Shown here: one piece after another, positions 5,014-13,635 of the stretch | Layout of the letters: every line of letters begins with the position of its first letter | Numbering within the stretch: position 1 is the stretch's first letter | Assembly (NCBI RefSeq): GCF_003334335.1 | Contig: NZ_QOWQ01000037.1 | Length of the DNA stretch: 41,651 nucleotides | Direction: 5' to 3' (one strand) | Source of the DNA: Escherichia coli | Lineage (GTDB): Bacteria > Pseudomonadota > Gammaproteobacteria > Enterobacterales > Enterobacteriaceae | Position numbers and translations under genes: made by a program | The notes under the pieces: model-generated | What the model saw: the letters and a program-made list of their open reading frames with translations, nothing else | The model's database searches: none | What the model was told of the DNA's origin: nothing

Positions 5014-7413
5014 ATGAAGCTAACCGATGCGGATAATGCCGCCGATGGCATTTTTTTCCCCGCCCTTGAGCAAAATATGATGGGTGCGGTGTTAATTAAC
5101 GAAAATGATGAAGTGATGTTTTTCAACCCCGCCGCAGAGAAGCTCTGGGGATACAAACGTGAAGAAGTCATTGGCAATAACATTGATATGCTGATTCCGC
5201 GGGATTTGCGTCCTGCGCATCCTGAATACATTCGTCACAACCGTGAAGGCGGTAAAGCGCGTGTTGAGGGGATGAGTCGGGAGCTGCAGCTGGAGAAAAA
5301 AGACGGCAGTAAAATCTGGACCCGTTTTGCGCTATCGAAAGTGAGCGCCGAGGGGAAAGTTTATTACCTGGCGCTGGTACGGGATGCCAGCGTAGAAATG
5401 GCGCAAAAAGAACAGACCCGACAATTGATTATTGCCGTTGACCATCTCGACCGACCGGTGATTGTCCTCGATCCGGAACGCCATATTGTGCAGTGCAATC
5501 GCGCATTTACCGAAATGTTTGGTTACTGCATTAGCGAAGCCAGCGGTATGCAGCCCGATACACTCCTGAACATTCCTGAATTCCCTGCCGATAACCGCAT
5601 TCGTTTACAACAGTTGCTATGGAAAACCGCCCGCGATCAGGACGAATTTCTGCTGTTGACGCGCACCGGTGAAAAAATCTGGATTAAAGCCTCTATCAGC
5701 CCGGTTTATGACGTGCTCGCGCATCTGCAGAACCTGGTAATGACTTTCTCGGATATCACCGAAGAACGGCAGATTCGCCAGCTTGAAGGCAATATTCTCG
5801 CCGCCATGTGCAGCAGCCCGCCATTTCATGAAATGGGGGAAATCATTTGTCGTAACATCGAATCTGTACTCAACGAATCGCATGTTTCGCTGTTCGCACT
5901 GCGCAACGGGATGCCGATACACTGGGCGTCATCTTCCCACGGTGCAGAAATTCAAAATGCGCAAAGCTGGTCAGCGACCATTCGTCAGCGTGATGGCGCG
6001 CCTGCGGGGATCCTGCAAATTAAAACCTCGTCAGGAGCAGAAACCAGCGCCTTTATCGAACGCGTGGCAGATATCAGCCAGCATATGGCCGCGCTGGCGC
6101 TGGAACAGGAAAAAAGCCGTCAGCATATTGAACAACTCATCCAATTTGATCCGATGACCGGTCTGCCAAATCGCAATAACCTGCACAATTACCTCGATGA
6201 CCTGGTCGACAAAGCCGTCTCTCCCGTGGTGTATCTCATCGGTGTTGACCATATTCAGGATGTGATTGATAGCCTTGGCTATGCGTGGGCCGATCAGGCA
6301 TTGCTGGAAGTGGTCAATCGCTTTCGTGAAAAACTCAAACCGGATCAGTATCTCTGTCGTATCGAAGGTACGCAGTTTGTCCTCGTGAGCCTCGAAAACG
6401 ACGTCAGTAACATTACCCAAATCGCCGATGAGCTACGGAATGTGGTCAGCAAGCCGATAATGATTGACGATAAACCCTTCCCGCTTACCTTGAGTATTGG
6501 CATCAGCTACGACCTGGGTAAAAACCGCGATTACTTGCTCTCCACTGCTCACAATGCAATGGATTATATTCGCAAGAATGGCGGTAACGGCTGGCAGTTC
6601 TTCAGCCCGGCGATGAACGAAATGGTAAAAGAGCGTTTGGTTTTAGGCGCAGCGCTGAAAGAAGCGATTAGCAATAACCAACTGAAACTGGTTTACCAGC
6701 CGCAAATCTTCGCAGAAACGGGTGAACTGTACGGCATCGAAGCCCTTGCTCGCTGGCACGATCCCCTGCATGGTCATGTGCCCCCTTCACGGTTTATTCC
6801 TCTCGCAGAAGAGATTGGTGAAATCGAAAATATTGGGCGCTGGGTCATCGCGGAAGCTTGCCGTCAGTTAGCAGAATGGCGTAGCCAGAATATTCATATC
6901 CCGGCGTTATCCGTGAACTTGTCGGCGCTGCACTTTCGCAGTAATCAACTGCCTAATCAGGTGTCTGATGCAATGCACGCCTGGGGTATTGACGGCCACC
7001 AGCTGACGGTAGAAATCACGGAAAGCATGATGATGGAACACGATACCGAAATCTTTAAGCGCATTCAGATCCTGCGTGATATGGGCGTGGGCTTATCGGT
7101 AGATGATTTTGGTACGGGCTTTTCCGGATTATCCCGCTTAGTCAGTCTTCCGGTAACGGAAATCAAAATTGACAAAAGTTTTGTCGATCGTTGTCTGACC
7201 GAAAAACGCATCCTTGCCTTACTTGAAGCCATTACCAGCATTGGGCAAAGCCTCAATTTAACCGTCGTGGCGGAAGGCGTCGAAACCAAAGAGCAATTTG
7301 AGATGCTACGCAAGATCCACTGTCGCGTTATTCAGGGATATTTCTTTTCCCGCCCCCTACCCGCCGAAGAAATTCCAGGCTGGATGAGCAGCGTGTTACC
7401 GCTGAAAATCTGA
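5014..7413 (+). CDS. dosP: c-di-GMP phosphodiesterase with haem-PAS sensor (PAS-PAS-GGDEF-EAL)
   Basis: ORF track starts at 4990, but the product begins MKLTDADNAADGIFF at the ATG at 5014, preceded by a gaggta RBS; 799 aa. The dosC stop (4987-4989) abuts the upstream ATG, consistent with co-transcription. Confidence 0.9.
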   Translation: MKLTDADNAADGIFFPALEQNMMGAVLINENDEVMFFNPAAEKLWGYKREEVIGNNIDMLIPRDLRPAHPEYIRHNREGGKARVEGMSRELQLEKKDGSKIWTRFALSKVSAEGKVYYLALVRDASVEMAQKEQTRQLIIAVDHLDRPVIVLDPERHIVQCNRAFTEMFGYCISEASGMQPDTLLNIPEFPADNRIRLQQLLWKTARDQDEFLLLTRTGEKIWIKASISPVYDVLAHLQNLVMTFSDITEERQIRQLEGNILAAMCSSPPFHEMGEIICRNIESVLNESHVSLFALRNGMPIHWASSSHGAEIQNAQSWSATIRQRDGAPAGILQIKTSSGAETSAFIERVADISQHMAALALEQEKSRQHIEQLIQFDPMTGLPNRNNLHNYLDDLVDKAVSPVVYLIGVDHIQDVIDSLGYAWADQALLEVVNRFREKLKPDQYLCRIEGTQFVLVSLENDVSNITQIADELRNVVSKPIMIDDKPFPLTLSIGISYDLGKNRDYLLSTAHNAMDYIRKNGGNGWQFFSPAMNEMVKERLVLGAALKEAISNNQLKLVYQPQIFAETGELYGIEALARWHDPLHGHVPPSRFIPLAEEIGEIENIGRWVIAEACRQLAEWRSQNIHIPALSVNLSALHFRSNQLPNQVSDAMHAWGIDGHQLTVEITESMMMEHDTEIFKRIQILRDMGVGLSVDDFGTGFSGLSRLVSLPVTEIKIDKSFVDRCLTEKRILALLEAITSIGQSLNLTVVAEGVETKEQFEMLRKIHCRVIQGYFFSRPLPAEEIPGWMSSVLPLKI

Positions 7414-7610
7414 CAAATTCCTCTCGCCCGCACTCGCGGGTTTTCATTTAACGTGACACTGTCACTTAAATACTGTGATTTCAGCTACGATTCCGGGAGA
7501 TTCCTTCCTTAACTTCCCCTCTTGCACCAAAACTGCACTACGCTGCACAAATGTTGATCAAAAGTTAAAAAATATAACTTTAAGCCAGCATTCTGGCGCT
7601 TATCCCGGCA

Positions 7611-7626
7611 TGGCATGAGATCTGCA
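7611..7626 (+). promoter_or_regulatory. Candidate sigma54 (-24/-12) promoter for the ddp operon
   Basis: TGGCAT-N7-TGCA with GG and GC 12 nt apart, about 45 nt upstream of the ddpX ATG; fits my recollection that ddpXABCDF is nitrogen-regulated. Not experimentally mapped here. Confidence 0.45.
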
Positions 7627-7670
7627 TAAGCGGAAAGCGCAGCAATTTTTGTCTTATACAGGAACCGTTT

Positions 7671-8252
7671 ATGTCGGATACCACCGAACTGGTTGATTTA
7701 GCCGTAATCTTCCCTGATCTGGAGATCGAATTGAAATACGCCTGCGCTGATAACATCACAGGTAAAGCTATTTATCAGCAAGCGCGTTGTCTGTTACACA
7801 AGGATGCGATTACCGCGCTGGCGAAAAGTATCAGCATCGCCCAGCTGTCAGGGTTACAACTGGTGATTTACGATGCGTATCGCCCACAACAAGCACAGGC
7901 GATGTTGTGGCAAGCCTGCCCAGACCCGCAATATGTTGTTGATGTGACGGTCGGTTCTAATCACAGCCGTGGCACGGCGATCGACCTGACGCTTCGTGAT
8001 GAGCACGGGAACATCCTCGATATGGGCGCAGGGTTCGATGAAATGCACGAGCGCTCCCATGCCTATCACCCTTCCGTCCCGCCCGCCGCTCAGCGCAATC
8101 GGCTGTTGCTGAATGCGATAATGACTGGTGGCGGTTTTGTCGGTATCTCCAGCGAATGGTGGCACTTCGAATTACCCCAGGCAGCGAGTTACCCTCTGCT
8201 CGCTGATCAATTCTCTTGTTTTATATCCCCTGGCACACAGCACGTCAGTTAA
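7671..8252 (+). CDS. ddpX: D-Ala-D-Ala dipeptidase (VanX homologue)
   Basis: 193-aa ORF; recognised as DdpX from sequence, with the zinc-peptidase SxHxxGxAxD motif (SNHSRGTAID). Confidence 0.9.
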   Translation: MSDTTELVDLAVIFPDLEIELKYACADNITGKAIYQQARCLLHKDAITALAKSISIAQLSGLQLVIYDAYRPQQAQAMLWQACPDPQYVVDVTVGSNHSRGTAIDLTLRDEHGNILDMGAGFDEMHERSHAYHPSVPPAAQRNRLLLNAIMTGGGFVGISSEWWHFELPQAASYPLLADQFSCFISPGTQHVS

Positions 8253-8265
8253 TCAGGAAACTGTC

Positions 8266-9816
8266 ATGAAGAGATCGATATCGTTTCGTCCCACATTGCT
8301 CGCGCTCGTCCTTGCCACAAATTTCCCGGTTGCGCACGCCGCCGTACCAAAAGATATGCTGGTGATTGGTAAGGCCGCCGATCCACAAACCCTCGACCCG
8401 GCGGTAACAATAGATAATAACGACTGGACAGTGACCTACCCGTCTTATCAGCGGCTGGTTCAGTACAAAACGGACGGTGATAAAGGCTCAACCGACGTTG
8501 AAGGCGATCTGGCAAGTAGCTGGAAAGCGTCTGACGATCAAAAAGAGTGGACGTTCACCCTGAAAGATAATGCTAAATTTGCCGATGGCACACCTGTCAC
8601 TGCCGAAGCAGTAAAACTTTCTTTTGAGCGGCTACTAAAAATCGGCCAGGGGCCAGCAGAAGCATTTCCCAAAGATTTAAAGATTGATGCTCCCGACGAA
8701 CATACGGTGAAGTTTACCCTTAGCCAACCATTCGCACCGTTCCTCTACACGCTGGCGAATGACGGTGCATCCATTATCAATCCGGCGGTCTTAAAGGAAC
8801 ATGCAGCGGATGATGCTCGCGGCTTCCTCGCGCAAAATACCGCCGGTTCCGGACCATTTATGCTGAAAAGCTGGCAAAAAGGTCAGCAATTAGTTCTGGT
8901 GCCAAATCCGCATTACCCAGGCAATAAACCGAACTTCAAACGGGTATCGGTAAAAATTATTGGTGAAAGTGCCTCCCGTCGCCTGCAGCTCTCCCGTGGC
9001 GACATTGACATTGCCGATGCGCTGCCGGTGGATCAACTCAACGCCCTGAAGCAGGAAAATAAAGTCAATGTGGCAGAGTATCCGTCACTGCGCGTTACCT
9101 ATCTGTATCTGAATAACAGCAAAGCGCCTCTTAATCAGGCGGATCTGCGTCGGGCCATTTCCTGGTCTACCGATTATCAGGGCATGGTTAACGGCATTCT
9201 GAGTGGTAACGGAAAACAGATGCGCGGCCCGATTCCGGAAGGCATGTGGGGCTACGATGCGACGGCAATGCAATACAACCATGACGAAACGAAAGCCAAA
9301 GCCGAATGGGATAAAGTGACGAGCAAACCCACCAGCCTGACGTTTCTCTACTCCGATAACGATCCGAACTGGGAGCCTATTGCTCTGGCGACACAATCCA
9401 GTCTCAACAAGCTGGGCATCATTGTGAAGCTGGAAAAGCTGGCGAACGCCACCATGCGCGACAGAGTGGGTAAAGGTGATTACGACATTGCGATTGGCAA
9501 CTGGAGTCCGGATTTTGCCGACCCGTATATGTTTATGAATTACTGGTTTGAGTCAGACAAAAAAGGTCTGCCGGGTAACCGCTCGTTCTATGAAAACAGT
9601 GAGGTCGATAAGTTACTGCGCAATGCGCTTGCGACCACCGACCAGACGCAGCGTACCCGGGACTACCAGCAGGCACAGAAAATCGTCATTGATGACGCTG
9701 CTTATGTGTACCTGTTCCAGAAAAACTACCAACTGGCGATGAACAAAGAGGTGAAAGGCTTTGTGTTCAATCCCATGCTGGAACAGGTCTTCAATATCAA
9801 TACCATGAGTAAATAA
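8266..9816 (+). CDS. ddpA: Periplasmic dipeptide-binding protein of ABC transporter
   Basis: ORF track starts at 8128 inside ddpX; the real start is the ATG at 8266 (MKRSISFRPTLLALVLATNFPVAHA signal peptide), giving 516 aa. Family 5 solute-binding protein. Confidence 0.9.
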   Translation: MKRSISFRPTLLALVLATNFPVAHAAVPKDMLVIGKAADPQTLDPAVTIDNNDWTVTYPSYQRLVQYKTDGDKGSTDVEGDLASSWKASDDQKEWTFTLKDNAKFADGTPVTAEAVKLSFERLLKIGQGPAEAFPKDLKIDAPDEHTVKFTLSQPFAPFLYTLANDGASIINPAVLKEHAADDARGFLAQNTAGSGPFMLKSWQKGQQLVLVPNPHYPGNKPNFKRVSVKIIGESASRRLQLSRGDIDIADALPVDQLNALKQENKVNVAEYPSLRVTYLYLNNSKAPLNQADLRRAISWSTDYQGMVNGILSGNGKQMRGPIPEGMWGYDATAMQYNHDETKAKAEWDKVTSKPTSLTFLYSDNDPNWEPIALATQSSLNKLGIIVKLEKLANATMRDRVGKGDYDIAIGNWSPDFADPYMFMNYWFESDKKGLPGNRSFYENSEVDKLLRNALATTDQTQRTRDYQQAQKIVIDDAAYVYLFQKNYQLAMNKEVKGFVFNPMLEQVFNINTMSK

Positions 9817-9817
9817 C

Positions 9818-10840
9818 GTGACCTTCTGGAGTATTTTACGCCAACGCTGCTGGGGGCTGGTGCTCGTGGTGGCGGGCGTCTGCGTGATTACGTTTATTAT
9901 CTCGCATCTGATCCCTGGTGATCCGGCGCGGTTACTGGCGGGTGACCGCGCCAGCGATGCTATCGTGGAAAATATTCGCCAGCAACTGGGACTGGACCAG
10001 CCACTGTATGTACAGTTTTACCGCTACGTCAGCGACCTGTTTCATGGTGACCTGGGAACATCCATTCGTACCGGGCGTCCGGTGCTGGAAGAGTTGCGTA
10101 TATTTTTCCCGGCGACGCTGGAGCTGGCTTTTGGTGCCCTGCTGCTGGCACTCCTGATTGGCATCCCGCTGGGCATACTCTCTGCAGTCTGGCGAAATCG
10201 CTGGCTGGATCATCTGGTGCGAATAATGGCCATTACCGGAATCTCCACACCTGCGTTCTGGCTTGGGCTGGGCGTCATTGTGCTGTTTTATGGTCATCTG
10301 CAAATTCTTCCCGGCGGCGGAAGGCTTGATGACTGGCTGGATCCACCAACGCACGTTACCGGCTTTTATCTGCTCGATGCGCTGCTTGAAGGCAACGGTG
10401 AAGTCTTCTTCAATGCGTTGCAACATCTCATCTTACCGGCATTAACGCTGGCGTTCGTTCACCTGGGAATTGTCGCTCGCCAGATCCGCTCAGCGATGCT
10501 GGAACAATTGAGTGAAGACTACATTCGTACCGCCCGGGCCAGCGGCTTGCCCGGCTGGTATATCGTTTTATGTTATGCGCTACCCAATGCGTTGATCCCA
10601 TCGATTACCGTATTGGGTTTGGCGCTGGGCGATTTGTTGTATGGCGCAGTGCTCACCGAAACCGTTTTTGCCTGGCCCGGAATGGGTGCATGGGTAGTAA
10701 CATCAATACAGGCGCTCGACTTCCCGGCAGTGATGGGCTTTGCCGTCGTGGTTTCATTTGCTTATGTGCTGGTCAACCTGGTGGTGGATTTGCTCTATTT
10801 GTGGATTGATCCGCGTATCGGACGTGGAGGTGGTGAATGA
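9818..10840 (+). CDS. ddpB: ABC transporter permease (DppB-like)
   Basis: 340-aa membrane protein starting at GTG at 9818, 2 nt after the ddpA stop. Confidence 0.9.
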   Translation: MTFWSILRQRCWGLVLVVAGVCVITFIISHLIPGDPARLLAGDRASDAIVENIRQQLGLDQPLYVQFYRYVSDLFHGDLGTSIRTGRPVLEELRIFFPATLELAFGALLLALLIGIPLGILSAVWRNRWLDHLVRIMAITGISTPAFWLGLGVIVLFYGHLQILPGGGRLDDWLDPPTHVTGFYLLDALLEGNGEVFFNALQHLILPALTLAFVHLGIVARQIRSAMLEQLSEDYIRTARASGLPGWYIVLCYALPNALIPSITVLGLALGDLLYGAVLTETVFAWPGMGAWVVTSIQALDFPAVMGFAVVVSFAYVLVNLVVDLLYLWIDPRIGRGGGE

Positions 10841-11733
10841 TGCTAAGCGAGGAAACGTCCGCCGTACGCCCACAAAAACAAACGCGATTTAACGGTGCAA
10901 AACTGGTATGGATGCTGAAAGGCAGTCCGCTCACCGTGACCAGCGCAGTCATCATTGTATTAATGCTATTGATGATGATTTTTTCACCGTGGCTGGCGAC
11001 GCATGATCCCAACGCCATTGATTTAACCGCCCGCCTTTTGCCGCCTTCTGCGGCGCACTGGTTTGGCACCGATGAAGTGGGACGCGATCTGTTTAGCCGC
11101 GTACTGGTCGGCAGTCAGCAATCAATTCTCGCCGGATTAGTCGTGGTTGCCATTGCGGGTATGATTGGTTCGCTACTCGGATGTCTATCCGGTGTGCTTG
11201 GTGGACGCGCAGACGCCATCATCATGCGCATCATGGACATTATGCTGTCGATTCCTTCGTTGGTACTGACAATGGCACTGGCTGCCGCTCTCGGGCCGAG
11301 TTTGTTTAACGCCATGCTGGCTATTGCTATTGTGCGAATTCCCTTTTATGTGCGCCTGGCGCGGGGGCAAGCATTAGTTGTACGCCAGTATACCTATGTT
11401 CAGGCGGCGAAAACCTTTGGCGCGTCTCGTTGGCATCTGATCAACTGGCATATTTTACGTAACTCCCTACCGCCGCTGATCGTGCAGGCATCGCTGGATA
11501 TCGGTAGCGCGATTTTAATGGCCGCCACGTTGGGATTTATTGGCCTGGGTGCTCAACAACCGAGTGCTGAATGGGGCGCGATGGTAGCAAATGGTCGCAA
11601 CTATGTACTCGATCAGTGGTGGTATTGCGCATTTCCGGGGGCAGCGATTTTGCTTACCGCCGTCGGGTTTAATCTCTTTGGTGATGGTATTCGCGATCTG
11701 CTTGACCCGAAAGCAGGAGGAAAGCAGTCATGA
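10837..11733 (+). CDS. ddpC: ABC transporter permease (DppC-like)
   Basis: 298-aa membrane protein; ATGA overlap with the ddpB stop. Confidence 0.9.
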   Translation: MMLSEETSAVRPQKQTRFNGAKLVWMLKGSPLTVTSAVIIVLMLLMMIFSPWLATHDPNAIDLTARLLPPSAAHWFGTDEVGRDLFSRVLVGSQQSILAGLVVVAIAGMIGSLLGCLSGVLGGRADAIIMRIMDIMLSIPSLVLTMALAAALGPSLFNAMLAIAIVRIPFYVRLARGQALVVRQYTYVQAAKTFGASRWHLINWHILRNSLPPLIVQASLDIGSAILMAATLGFIGLGAQQPSAEWGAMVANGRNYVLDQWWYCAFPGAAILLTAVGFNLFGDGIRDLLDPKAGGKQS

Positions 11734-12716
11734 CCCAACCCGTTCTGGACATTCAACAACTGCATTTGAGTTTCCCCGGTTTTAACGGTGATGTTCACGC
11801 GCTCAACAATGTGTCCTTGCAGATTAACCGCGGTGAAATTGTCGGTCTGGTGGGAGAATCCGGCTCAGGTAAATCAGTCACCGCAATGCTGATTATGCGT
11901 CTGCTACCGACGGGCAGTTATTGCGTACATCGGGGGCAGATTTCCCTGCTGGGAGAAGATGTTCTTAACGCGCGGGAAAAACAGCTTCGTCAGTGGCGCG
12001 GCGCACGAGTGGCGATGATCTTTCAGGAACCGATGACCGCCCTCAATCCGACACGTCGAATAGGTCTTCAGATGATGGACGTGATCCGCCATCATCAACC
12101 AATAAGTCGTCGGGAAGCCAGAGCTAAAGCGATTGACCTGCTGGAAGAGATGCAAATCCCGGATGCCGTGGAAGTTATGTCGCGCTATCCGTTTGAGCTT
12201 TCAGGTGGTATGCGCCAGCGGGTAATGATTGCGCTGGCATTCTCCTGCGAGCCGCAATTGATTATTGCCGACGAACCGACTACGGCGCTGGACGTCACGG
12301 TGCAGTTGCAGGTACTGCGTTTGCTTAAACATAAAGCCCGCGCCAGTGGAACTGCGGTTCTGTTCATCAGCCATGATATGGCCGTGGTGTCGCAACTGTG
12401 CGATAGCGTTTACGTGATGTATGCCGGAAGCGTAATTGAAAGCGGCGTGACGGCAGACGTTATCCATCATCCCCGGCATCCGTATACCATTGGTTTGCTG
12501 CAATGCGCACCAGAACATGGAGTACCACGCCAGCTATTACCCGCCATTCCAGGGACGGTACCAAACCTCACCCATTTGCCTGACGGCTGCGCTTTTCGCG
12601 ATCGTTGCTATGCGGCAGGTGCACAGTGTGAAAACGTCCCGGCGCTGACAGCGTGTGGTGACAACAACCAGCGCTGTGCCTGTTGGTATCCGCAGCAGGA
12701 GGTTATAAGTGTCTGA
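11730..12716 (+). CDS. ddpD: ABC transporter ATP-binding protein (DppD-like)
   Basis: 328 aa; Walker A GESGSGKS and ABC signature LSGGMRQR; 4-bp overlap with ddpC. Confidence 0.9.
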   Translation: MTQPVLDIQQLHLSFPGFNGDVHALNNVSLQINRGEIVGLVGESGSGKSVTAMLIMRLLPTGSYCVHRGQISLLGEDVLNAREKQLRQWRGARVAMIFQEPMTALNPTRRIGLQMMDVIRHHQPISRREARAKAIDLLEEMQIPDAVEVMSRYPFELSGGMRQRVMIALAFSCEPQLIIADEPTTALDVTVQLQVLRLLKHKARASGTAVLFISHDMAVVSQLCDSVYVMYAGSVIESGVTADVIHHPRHPYTIGLLQCAPEHGVPRQLLPAIPGTVPNLTHLPDGCAFRDRCYAAGAQCENVPALTACGDNNQRCACWYPQQEVISV

Positions 12717-13635
12717 CACGTTATTAACGTTACGCGACGTCCATATCAATTTCCCGGCCCGTAAAAACTGGCTTGGTAAAACTACGGAACATGTTCATGC
12801 CATTAATGGTATTGATTTACAGATCCGCCGTGGTGAAACCTTAGGGATCGTCGGCGAGTCAGGCTGCGGCAAAAGCACCCTCGCACAGCTTTTAATGGGT
12901 ATGCTGCAACCGAGCCACGGGCAGTACATCCGTTCTGGCTCACAACGCATTATGCAGATGGTGTTTCAGGACCCGCTCTCTTCGCTTAATCCGCGCTTAC
13001 CGGTGTGGCGCATCATCACAGAACCGCTCTGGATAGCTAAGCGTAGTAGTGAACAACAGCGGCGAGCGTTGGCAGAGGAGTTGGCTGTGCAGGTGGGTAT
13101 TCGTCCGGAGTATCTCGACCGCCTGCCTCATGCGTTCTCCGGCGGGCAGCGGCAACGTATCGCCATTGCCAGAGCACTCTCTTCGCAGCCTGACGTGATT
13201 GTGCTTGATGAGCCAACCTCTGCGCTGGATATCTCCGTTCAGGCGCAGATCCTCAATTTACTGGTAACGCTACAGGAAAATCACGGGCTGACCTATGTGC
13301 TGATTTCACACAATGTCTCGGTGATACGTCATATGAGCGATCGGGTGGCGGTGATGTATCTCGGGCAGATTGTAGAACTGGGCGACGCGCAGCAGGTGCT
13401 GACGGCACCTGCACATCCATACACCCGATTATTGCTGGATTCCCTCCCCGCCATTGATAAACCGCTGGAGGAAGAATGGGCATTACGTAAAACGGATCTG
13501 CCGGGAAACCGCACGTTGCCGCAAGGCTGTTTTTTCTACGAACGTTGCCCGCTGGCAACCCACGGATGTGAAGTCCGGCAATCATTAGCAATAAGGGAGG
13601 ACGGACGTGAGCTCCGGTGCTGGCGGGCGCTGTAG
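12709..13635 (+). CDS. ddpF: ABC transporter ATP-binding protein (DppF-like)
   Basis: 308 aa; Walker A GESGCGKS and signature FSGGQRQR; 8-bp overlap with ddpD. Confidence 0.9.
   Translation: MSDTLLTLRDVHINFPARKNWLGKTTEHVHAINGIDLQIRRGETLGIVGESGCGKSTLAQLLMGMLQPSHGQYIRSGSQRIMQMVFQDPLSSLNPRLPVWRIITEPLWIAKRSSEQQRRALAEELAVQVGIRPEYLDRLPHAFSGGQRQRIAIARALSSQPDVIVLDEPTSALDISVQAQILNLLVTLQENHGLTYVLISHNVSVIRHMSDRVAVMYLGQIVELGDAQQVLTAPAHPYTRLLLDSLPAIDKPLEEEWALRKTDLPGNRTLPQGCFFYERCPLATHGCEVRQSLAIREDGRELRCWRAL

Follow-up and report, generated by a model that had tools for sequence, protein, structure and literature searches.

Classical NtrC enhancers, such as those of glnAp2 and glnHp2, carry good TGCACCA-N3-TGGTGCA dyads. 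For the ddpXABCDF operon of Escherichia coli, the sequence ATGGCATGAGATCTGCA was identified by sigma-54 ChIP-seq as site OS16, with ddpX as the downstream gene and a predicted start 34 nt ahead of it, and was marked as a site that EcoCyc had predicted before (PMC4591121). The RegulonDB set of sigma-54 promoters also includes ddpX (PMC3118216). A microarray study of sigma-54 deletion and overexpression revealed that ddpX responds, and reported the same predicted motif, ggcaTGGCATGAGATCTGCATAagcg (PMC2831329). NtrC ChIP-seq in nitrogen-starved cells yielded a peak assigned to ddpXABCDF, for which the authors referred to earlier expression data (Zimmer et al. 2000) as support (PMC4066584). In gel shift experiments, a ddpX probe was bound by purified NtrC and by RpoN holoenzyme, and both together formed a ternary complex (PMC8743547). 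As judged from its primers, the probe covers about positions 7340-7748 of the DNA analysed here. In the same study, gSELEX and RT-qPCR likewise gave evidence for sigma-54 control of ddpX, and nitrogen depletion raised the mRNA of ddpX 104.5-fold and that of ddpF 2.2-fold; its supplement lists the gel-shift primers, though not the sequence of the NtrC box ascribed to ddpX. Earlier publications describe the promoter ddpXp together with its sigma factor, activator, and physiological signal, which makes it a known feature. For E. coli, the present analysis adds nothing new, as ddpXp is catalogued and the idea of D-Ala-D-Ala scavenging is more than 20 years old.

A second described system is found in Burkholderia pseudomallei, where sapR lies next to genes for a dipeptide ABC transporter and a D-Ala-D-Ala dipeptidase. 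When sapR was mutated, these neighbours belonged to the most strongly down-regulated genes (PMC9884982). The term "sigma-54" has no occurrence in that paper.

The window studied here is a stretch of 41,651 nt from E. coli (RefSeq assembly GCF_003334335.1, contig NZ_QOWQ01000037.1), of which positions 7000-8700 match E. coli K-12 MG1655, and many other E. coli chromosomes, with 100% identity. In the matching RefSeq stretch of MG1655, the gene order is gadC, digH, dosC, dosP, ddpX, ddpA, ddpB, ddpC, ddpD, ddpF, and then the convergent osmC; the coordinates of the features are collected in Table 1. DdpX passed the NCBIfam D-alanyl-D-alanine dipeptidase model NF007557 (334.7 bits, cut-off 176) and matched the VanX structure 1R44 (E = 1.1e-20); with the NCBIfam VanX equivalog model it scored 93.9 bits, under the cut-off of 320. 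The ddpABCDF genes (8266-13635) are annotated in RefSeq as a dipeptide-type ABC importer, consisting of a substrate-binding protein, two permeases, and two ATPases, and DdpA matched the NCBIfam DppA, NikA, and OppA models, each below the equivalog cut-off. The original prediction had described a VanX-like ddpX followed by a complete five-gene dipeptide ABC transporter, which RefSeq, NCBIfam, and the 1R44 match bear out. It had also read a sigma-54-type promoter candidate ahead of the operon as fitting the known idea of D-Ala-D-Ala scavenging under starvation or nitrogen limitation, in agreement with the published sigma-54 and NtrC occupancy, gel shifts, and 104.5-fold induction. Within the operon, a gSELEX study of RpoD holoenzyme lists an "internal promoter" for the ddpA/ddpB junction, at about window position 9800 (PMC3946193), and this promoter might help to account for the rise of ddpF by 2.2-fold as compared with 104.5-fold for ddpX.

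Table 1. Features of the ddpX promoter region and operon (window coordinates, except for the last line, which refers to surveyed loci)
Feature	Position	Strand	Basis
dosP coding sequence	end at 7413		ORF list, RefSeq annotation
dosCP intrinsic terminator: stem-loop GCCCGCACTCGCGGGT (hairpin 7426-7441) and T-rich tail	7426-7451	+	terminator scan
Conserved upstream activating block TGCACCAAAACTGCACTACGCTGCACAAATGTTGATCAAAAGTTAA, likely enhancer	7522-7568	+	Citrobacter identity, alignment A1; NtrC assignment presumptive
Spacer between enhancer block and promoter, unconserved, A/T-rich at its 5′ end	7569-7609	+	sequence, alignment A1
Sigma-54 -24/-12 element ATGGCATGAGATCTGCA (17-mer)	7610-7626	+	pattern search, PWM 15.95 bits, identity to OS16, A1 conservation
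Predicted transcription start	7637	+	19 nt downstream of motif centre, 34-nt leader; by convention and from the distances given in PMC4591121 Table 1, coordinates converted
Shine-Dalgarno AGGAA	7660-7664	+	6 nt before ATG, sequence
ddpX, zinc D-Ala-D-Ala dipeptidase, VanX homologue	7671-8252	+	ORF list, RefSeq, NCBIfam, 1R44 match
ddpA	8266-9816	+	RefSeq annotation, ORF list, NCBIfam family matches for DdpA
ddpB	9818-10840	+	RefSeq annotation, ORF list
ddpC	10837-11733	+	RefSeq annotation, ORF list
ddpD	11730-12716	+	RefSeq annotation, ORF list
ddpF	12709-13635	+	RefSeq annotation, ORF list
Example of the motif-regulator layout	L013 2046-2117 (L004-L081, about 2040-2140)		

The pattern TGGCAT-N6-TGCA (TGGCATGAGATCTGCA, 7611-7626, plus strand) has a single occurrence in the window and differs by one mismatch from TGGCAY-N5-TTGCW. 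Its GG (7612-7613) and GC (7624-7625) show the canonical 12-nt offset of TGGCAC-N5-TTGCA, and the end of the element is separated by 44 nt from the ddpX ATG (7671) on the same strand. The element had been placed about 45 nt upstream of ddpX, with a -12 part at about 7624 and a spacer of N7; its presence, its distance, and the -12 position proved right, but the spacer is N6. A sigma-54 position weight matrix (PWM), the check that had been suggested for this motif, was built from the 41 other intergenic, sense-oriented sites that PMC4591121 lists from ChIP-seq in its Table 1, with ddpX left out. The ddpX 17-mer scored 15.95 bits, at the median of the validated sites (range of the 41 training sites 8.8-21.5 bits, median 15.8), and ranked second among the PWM matches on both strands of the window. 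The best match in the window was CTGGCACTACCGTTGCA (32905-32921, plus strand, 16.9 bits), a perfect TGGCAC-N5-TTGCA, which was published as IS19, an intragenic sigma-54 ChIP-seq site within narY, 517 nt before narW (PMC4591121).

The motif by itself is without significance across 41.6 kb. In shuffled windows, 0.365 equal-or-better PWM matches were expected per window, and the exact pattern, with an expectation of 0.25, was matched at least once in 22 of 100 shuffles. When the value from the PWM shuffles is scaled arithmetically to the 257 nt between dosP and ddpX, plus strand only, about 0.001 matches are expected. With 0.25-0.37 matches expected per shuffled window, and with binding not being equal to promoter activity, as was stressed in PMC4591121, the motif might be taken for a chance match, or for a site that sigma-54 binds without ever firing, as is the case for many intragenic ones. 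Hardly any credence can be given to this explanation, which is already contradicted by the promoter distance, the presence of a terminator that belongs to the region upstream of the operon, the conservation across Enterobacterales, and the 104.5-fold induction. The motif is convincing because of its position, its conservation, and the published experiments, and not because of the match alone.

In all probability, the element at 7610-7626 is the sigma-54 (RpoN) promoter ddpXp, which is activated by NtrC-P from 7522-7568 and transcribes ddpXABCDF from near 7637 for the use of D-Ala-D-Ala. Occupancy and induction were established by others, and the quality, position, and conservation of the motif were assessed here; the bases contacted by NtrC, the looping, and the exact start are what we infer from them. 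No experimentally mapped ddpX 5′ end was found in the searchable literature that mentions ddpX. In the proposed mechanism, sigma-54 RNA polymerase would rest on the -24 GG and -12 GC (7610-7626) as a closed complex. Upon nitrogen limitation, NtrC-P would bind and oligomerise on 7522-7568, and a DNA loop across the unconserved spacer (7569-7609) would bring it to the polymerase, where ATP hydrolysis by NtrC-P would lead to promoter opening. Transcription from near 7637 through ddpX and ddpABCDF would then provide the dipeptidase and the importer, and imported D-Ala-D-Ala would be split, to give D-alanine as a nutrient.

The upstream block (7522-7568) is identical to that of Citrobacter amalonaticus at 46 of 47 positions, whereas the flanking intergenic DNA does not align. 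In a 12-genome alignment (A1), this block and the -24/-12 element, with its invariant TGGCA and TGC, were the only invariant islands. The block contains three TGCAC half-sites in the same orientation (7523, 7534, and 7544), whose spacing of 11 and 10 nt places them on one helical face, as well as a GTTAA (7564-7568) that is invariant in A1. In Huaxiibacter, a 10-nt duplication gives a fourth in-phase TGCAC. The first 17-mer of the block (7523-7539) is centred at about -106 from the predicted start, and the best NtrC-like dyad, TGCACAAATGTTGATCA (7544-7560), which agrees with the consensus at 10 of 14 positions, is centred at about -85. A search for NtrC enhancer sites 80-150 bp upstream had been suggested; a conserved block centred at about -85 to -106 was indeed found there, but without a canonical dyad. 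The dyad TGCACY-N5-GGTGCA, with up to 3 mismatches allowed, had no match in 7414-7670, and its matches in the whole window were fewer than in shuffles. Better dyads were observed at a comparable upstream distance in Serratia (TGCCCAAATGTTGTGCA, 11/14) and Raoultella (TGCACCTTCTTTGTGCA, 12/14). NtrC-like dyads with at least 10/14 positions were present upstream in 74% of the loci, compared with 5% of the shuffles, and those with at least 11/14 in 31% and 0.8%, respectively, percentages that, given the shared phylogeny of the loci, are descriptive and carry no probability.

The published NtrC ChIP bin corresponds, after conversion, to window positions 7590-7670, over the promoter rather than over the block. 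This offset was not counted against the model, because glnH, astC, and nac show the same offset in a comparison of the tables from PMC4066584 and PMC4591121. The block is the likely enhancer, and it is most probably bound by NtrC. It is improbable that a different enhancer-binding protein serves this block, or that NtrC works there with a partner. Such a protein would account for the lack of a canonical dyad and for the three direct TGCAC repeats and the invariant GTTAA, which are kept across genera and are not classical for NtrC; however, NtrC bound the fragment in gel shifts and was located there in vivo by ChIP-seq, and more canonical dyads exist at comparable upstream distances in other genera. 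As a separate observation, CTTGCACCAAAACTGCA (7521-7537, plus strand), which is part of the enhancer block, reached 12.85 bits on the sigma-54 matrix, although TG replaces the -24 GG. A CT-rich tract, ATTCCTTCCTTAACTTCCCCTCTT (7500-7522), adjoins the enhancer on its upstream side, and its TTCCT is complementary to the AGGAA Shine-Dalgarno sequence of ddpX. The tract appears reminiscent of the CT-rich "insulator" motifs of some sigma-54 promoters (bioRxiv 10.1101/086108).

The terminator behind dosP sets ddpX apart from upstream transcription, and a simple scan for sigma-70-type promoters in 7300-7760 returned no sites. With dosP closed by a terminator and no sigma-70 site at hand, the operon needs a promoter of its own, for which the sigma-54 element is the sole candidate. 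Lessard et al. reportedly observed, in 1998, an RpoS-dependent expression of ddpX in stationary phase, which counts for a separate sigma-S promoter. In E. coli O157:H7, ddpXA were among the RpoS-dependent genes, with values of 39 and 31 (PMC2907692), and in a cya mutant limited for glucose, ddpX was lowered (PMC4512719). One possibility, which appears less likely than not, is that a separate intergenic sigma-S (or sigma-70) promoter serves stationary phase, and that sigma-54 is one of two inputs, as at astCADBE. The empty scan argues against such a promoter, and the only -10-like hexamers seen by eye, TATAAC (7573) and TATACA (7655), have no usable -35 or would cut the ribosome-binding site; moreover, the effect of RpoS on ddpX may be indirect, or may be exerted via a non-canonical promoter. 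The strong RpoS dependence of ddpXA is unexplained by the sigma-54/NtrC model.

Other elements were sought around the promoter. A comparison by eye for an IHF site in the spacer between enhancer and promoter gave GATCAAAAGTTAA, which has 2 mismatches to WATCAANNNNTTR, and no claim is made for it. The sequence TATACAGGAACCGT is homologous to the ribosome-binding region of Citrobacter ddpX, with a local alignment score that was reached by 8-10 of 500 shuffles. An Rfam scan of 7300-8300 revealed no known RNA element, the one match being to a nematode snoRNA and below threshold, and a repeat search of the intergenic region found short palindromes only. A near-perfect palindrome, TTAACGTGACAcTGTCACTTAAA (7448-7470), lies directly after the dosP terminator and is kept in two other Escherichia loci (L002 and L003); the spacing of its GTGA-N5-TCAC does not fit CRP.

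Within E. coli, the promoter region (7490-7700) was found in 4,275 of 5,426 complete genomes (79%), with at least 99% identity in nearly all. A longer query (7000-8700), which includes the 3′ end of dosP, matched 5,399 genomes, and the comparison of these two counts indicates that about a fifth of E. coli (about 21%) are without the promoter and the 5′ region of ddpX. In one strain (hit H25), a deletion fuses dosC to position 7551, and most of the enhancer is gone.

To place the promoter in a wider context, 80 ddpX loci across Enterobacterales were surveyed, with one genome per species. In 71 of the 80 loci, a sigma-54 motif scoring 12.5 bits or more, such as ATGGCACGCGTCCTGCA, was found upstream of the operon, with a fixed distance to the gene that comes first, whereas about 6 would be expected by chance, according to a rough estimate from the density of PWM hits. 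The E. coli arrangement, with the motif directly before ddpX and with the E. coli sequence, was confined to the two Escherichia loci. In 64 of the 71 loci, the motif is located about 35-90 nt (usually about 55 nt) before an extra ORF that precedes ddpX on the same strand. This ORF encodes a protein of about 288 aa with an RpiR-type helix-turn-helix domain (Pfam HTH_6), which gave a full-length match to the NCBIfam SapR model with 374-400 bits, below the cut-off of 500. A TTGTTA-N6-TAACA palindrome follows the sigma-54 17-mer in 53 of the 71 loci, mostly from the very next base, and its location makes it a likely operator over the start site. Four loci from Erwinia, Pantoea, and unclassified Enterobacterales (L039, L043, L047, and L074, about 2829-2961) have a motif of 13.8-17.9 bits directly upstream of ddpX and no regulator, and three of these four are also without a DdpA homologue. 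The presence of the motif at ddpX loci that lack the regulator, and mostly DdpA, indicates that sigma-54 control tracks the dipeptidase, and not the transporter. The conserved, non-canonical 47-nt enhancer block and the regulator loss proposed below are minor new comparative notes, which, with the wide occurrence of sigma-54 control of ddpX in Enterobacterales, may be of modest use.

Both the regulator gene and the palindrome are absent in E. coli. The occurrence of the regulator layout in several enterobacterial families, together with the linkage in Burkholderia, makes loss in the Escherichia lineage the simplest reading. We lean, if only slightly, towards the view that the ddp promoter of E. 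coli is a reduced form of an ancestral P(sigma-54)-sapR-like-ddpX-ddpABCDF arrangement of Enterobacterales, in which the palindrome would have given regulator-specific, possibly cell-wall-signal-dependent control atop that by NtrC, and from which Escherichia would have deleted both the regulator gene and the palindrome. A search for a remnant of the regulator, by tblastn with the Citrobacter protein, found no match in the window, and only about the last 14 nt before the ddpX ATG, around the ribosome-binding site, could be aligned with Citrobacter. The sequence CAGCAATTT, considered by eye as a remnant of the regulator 3′ end, was unsupported by alignment against shuffles and was rejected. If the proposed loss is true, a potentially lethal D-Ala-D-Ala dipeptidase would be under the control of nitrogen status alone, via a non-canonical enhancer with three TGCAC half-sites. 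The loss of the regulator could also explain differences between species in how tightly an enzyme that destroys a cell-wall precursor is controlled.

Compared with the described systems, the element studied here is the same object as ddpXp of the E. coli ddpXABCDF operon (RegulonDB/EcoCyc, OS16), with an identical 17-mer, gene, and predicted start, and with no difference. With glnAp2 and glnHp2, it shares the -24 GG and -12 GC, the lack of a -35/-10 element, the induction by nitrogen limitation, and activator sites that lie on the same face of the helix some 80-140 bp upstream; in contrast to these promoters, ddpX has three TGCAC half-sites in the same orientation and at best a 10/14 dyad. The sapR cluster of B. 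pseudomallei likewise combines a VanX-like dipeptidase with a dipeptide ABC transporter, and a SapR-like gene of the RpiR family also comes first in most ddp operons of Enterobacterales, whereas both the regulator gene and the palindrome by the -12 element are missing from the E. coli operon. With vanHAX/VanRS of enterococcal vancomycin resistance, the locus shares the homology of DdpX to VanX. However, there are no vanH or vanA partners at the ddp locus, where ddpX is instead linked to an importer, and ddpX is controlled by a nutritional sigma-54 promoter, whereas vanHAX is controlled by a VanRS sigma-70 promoter.
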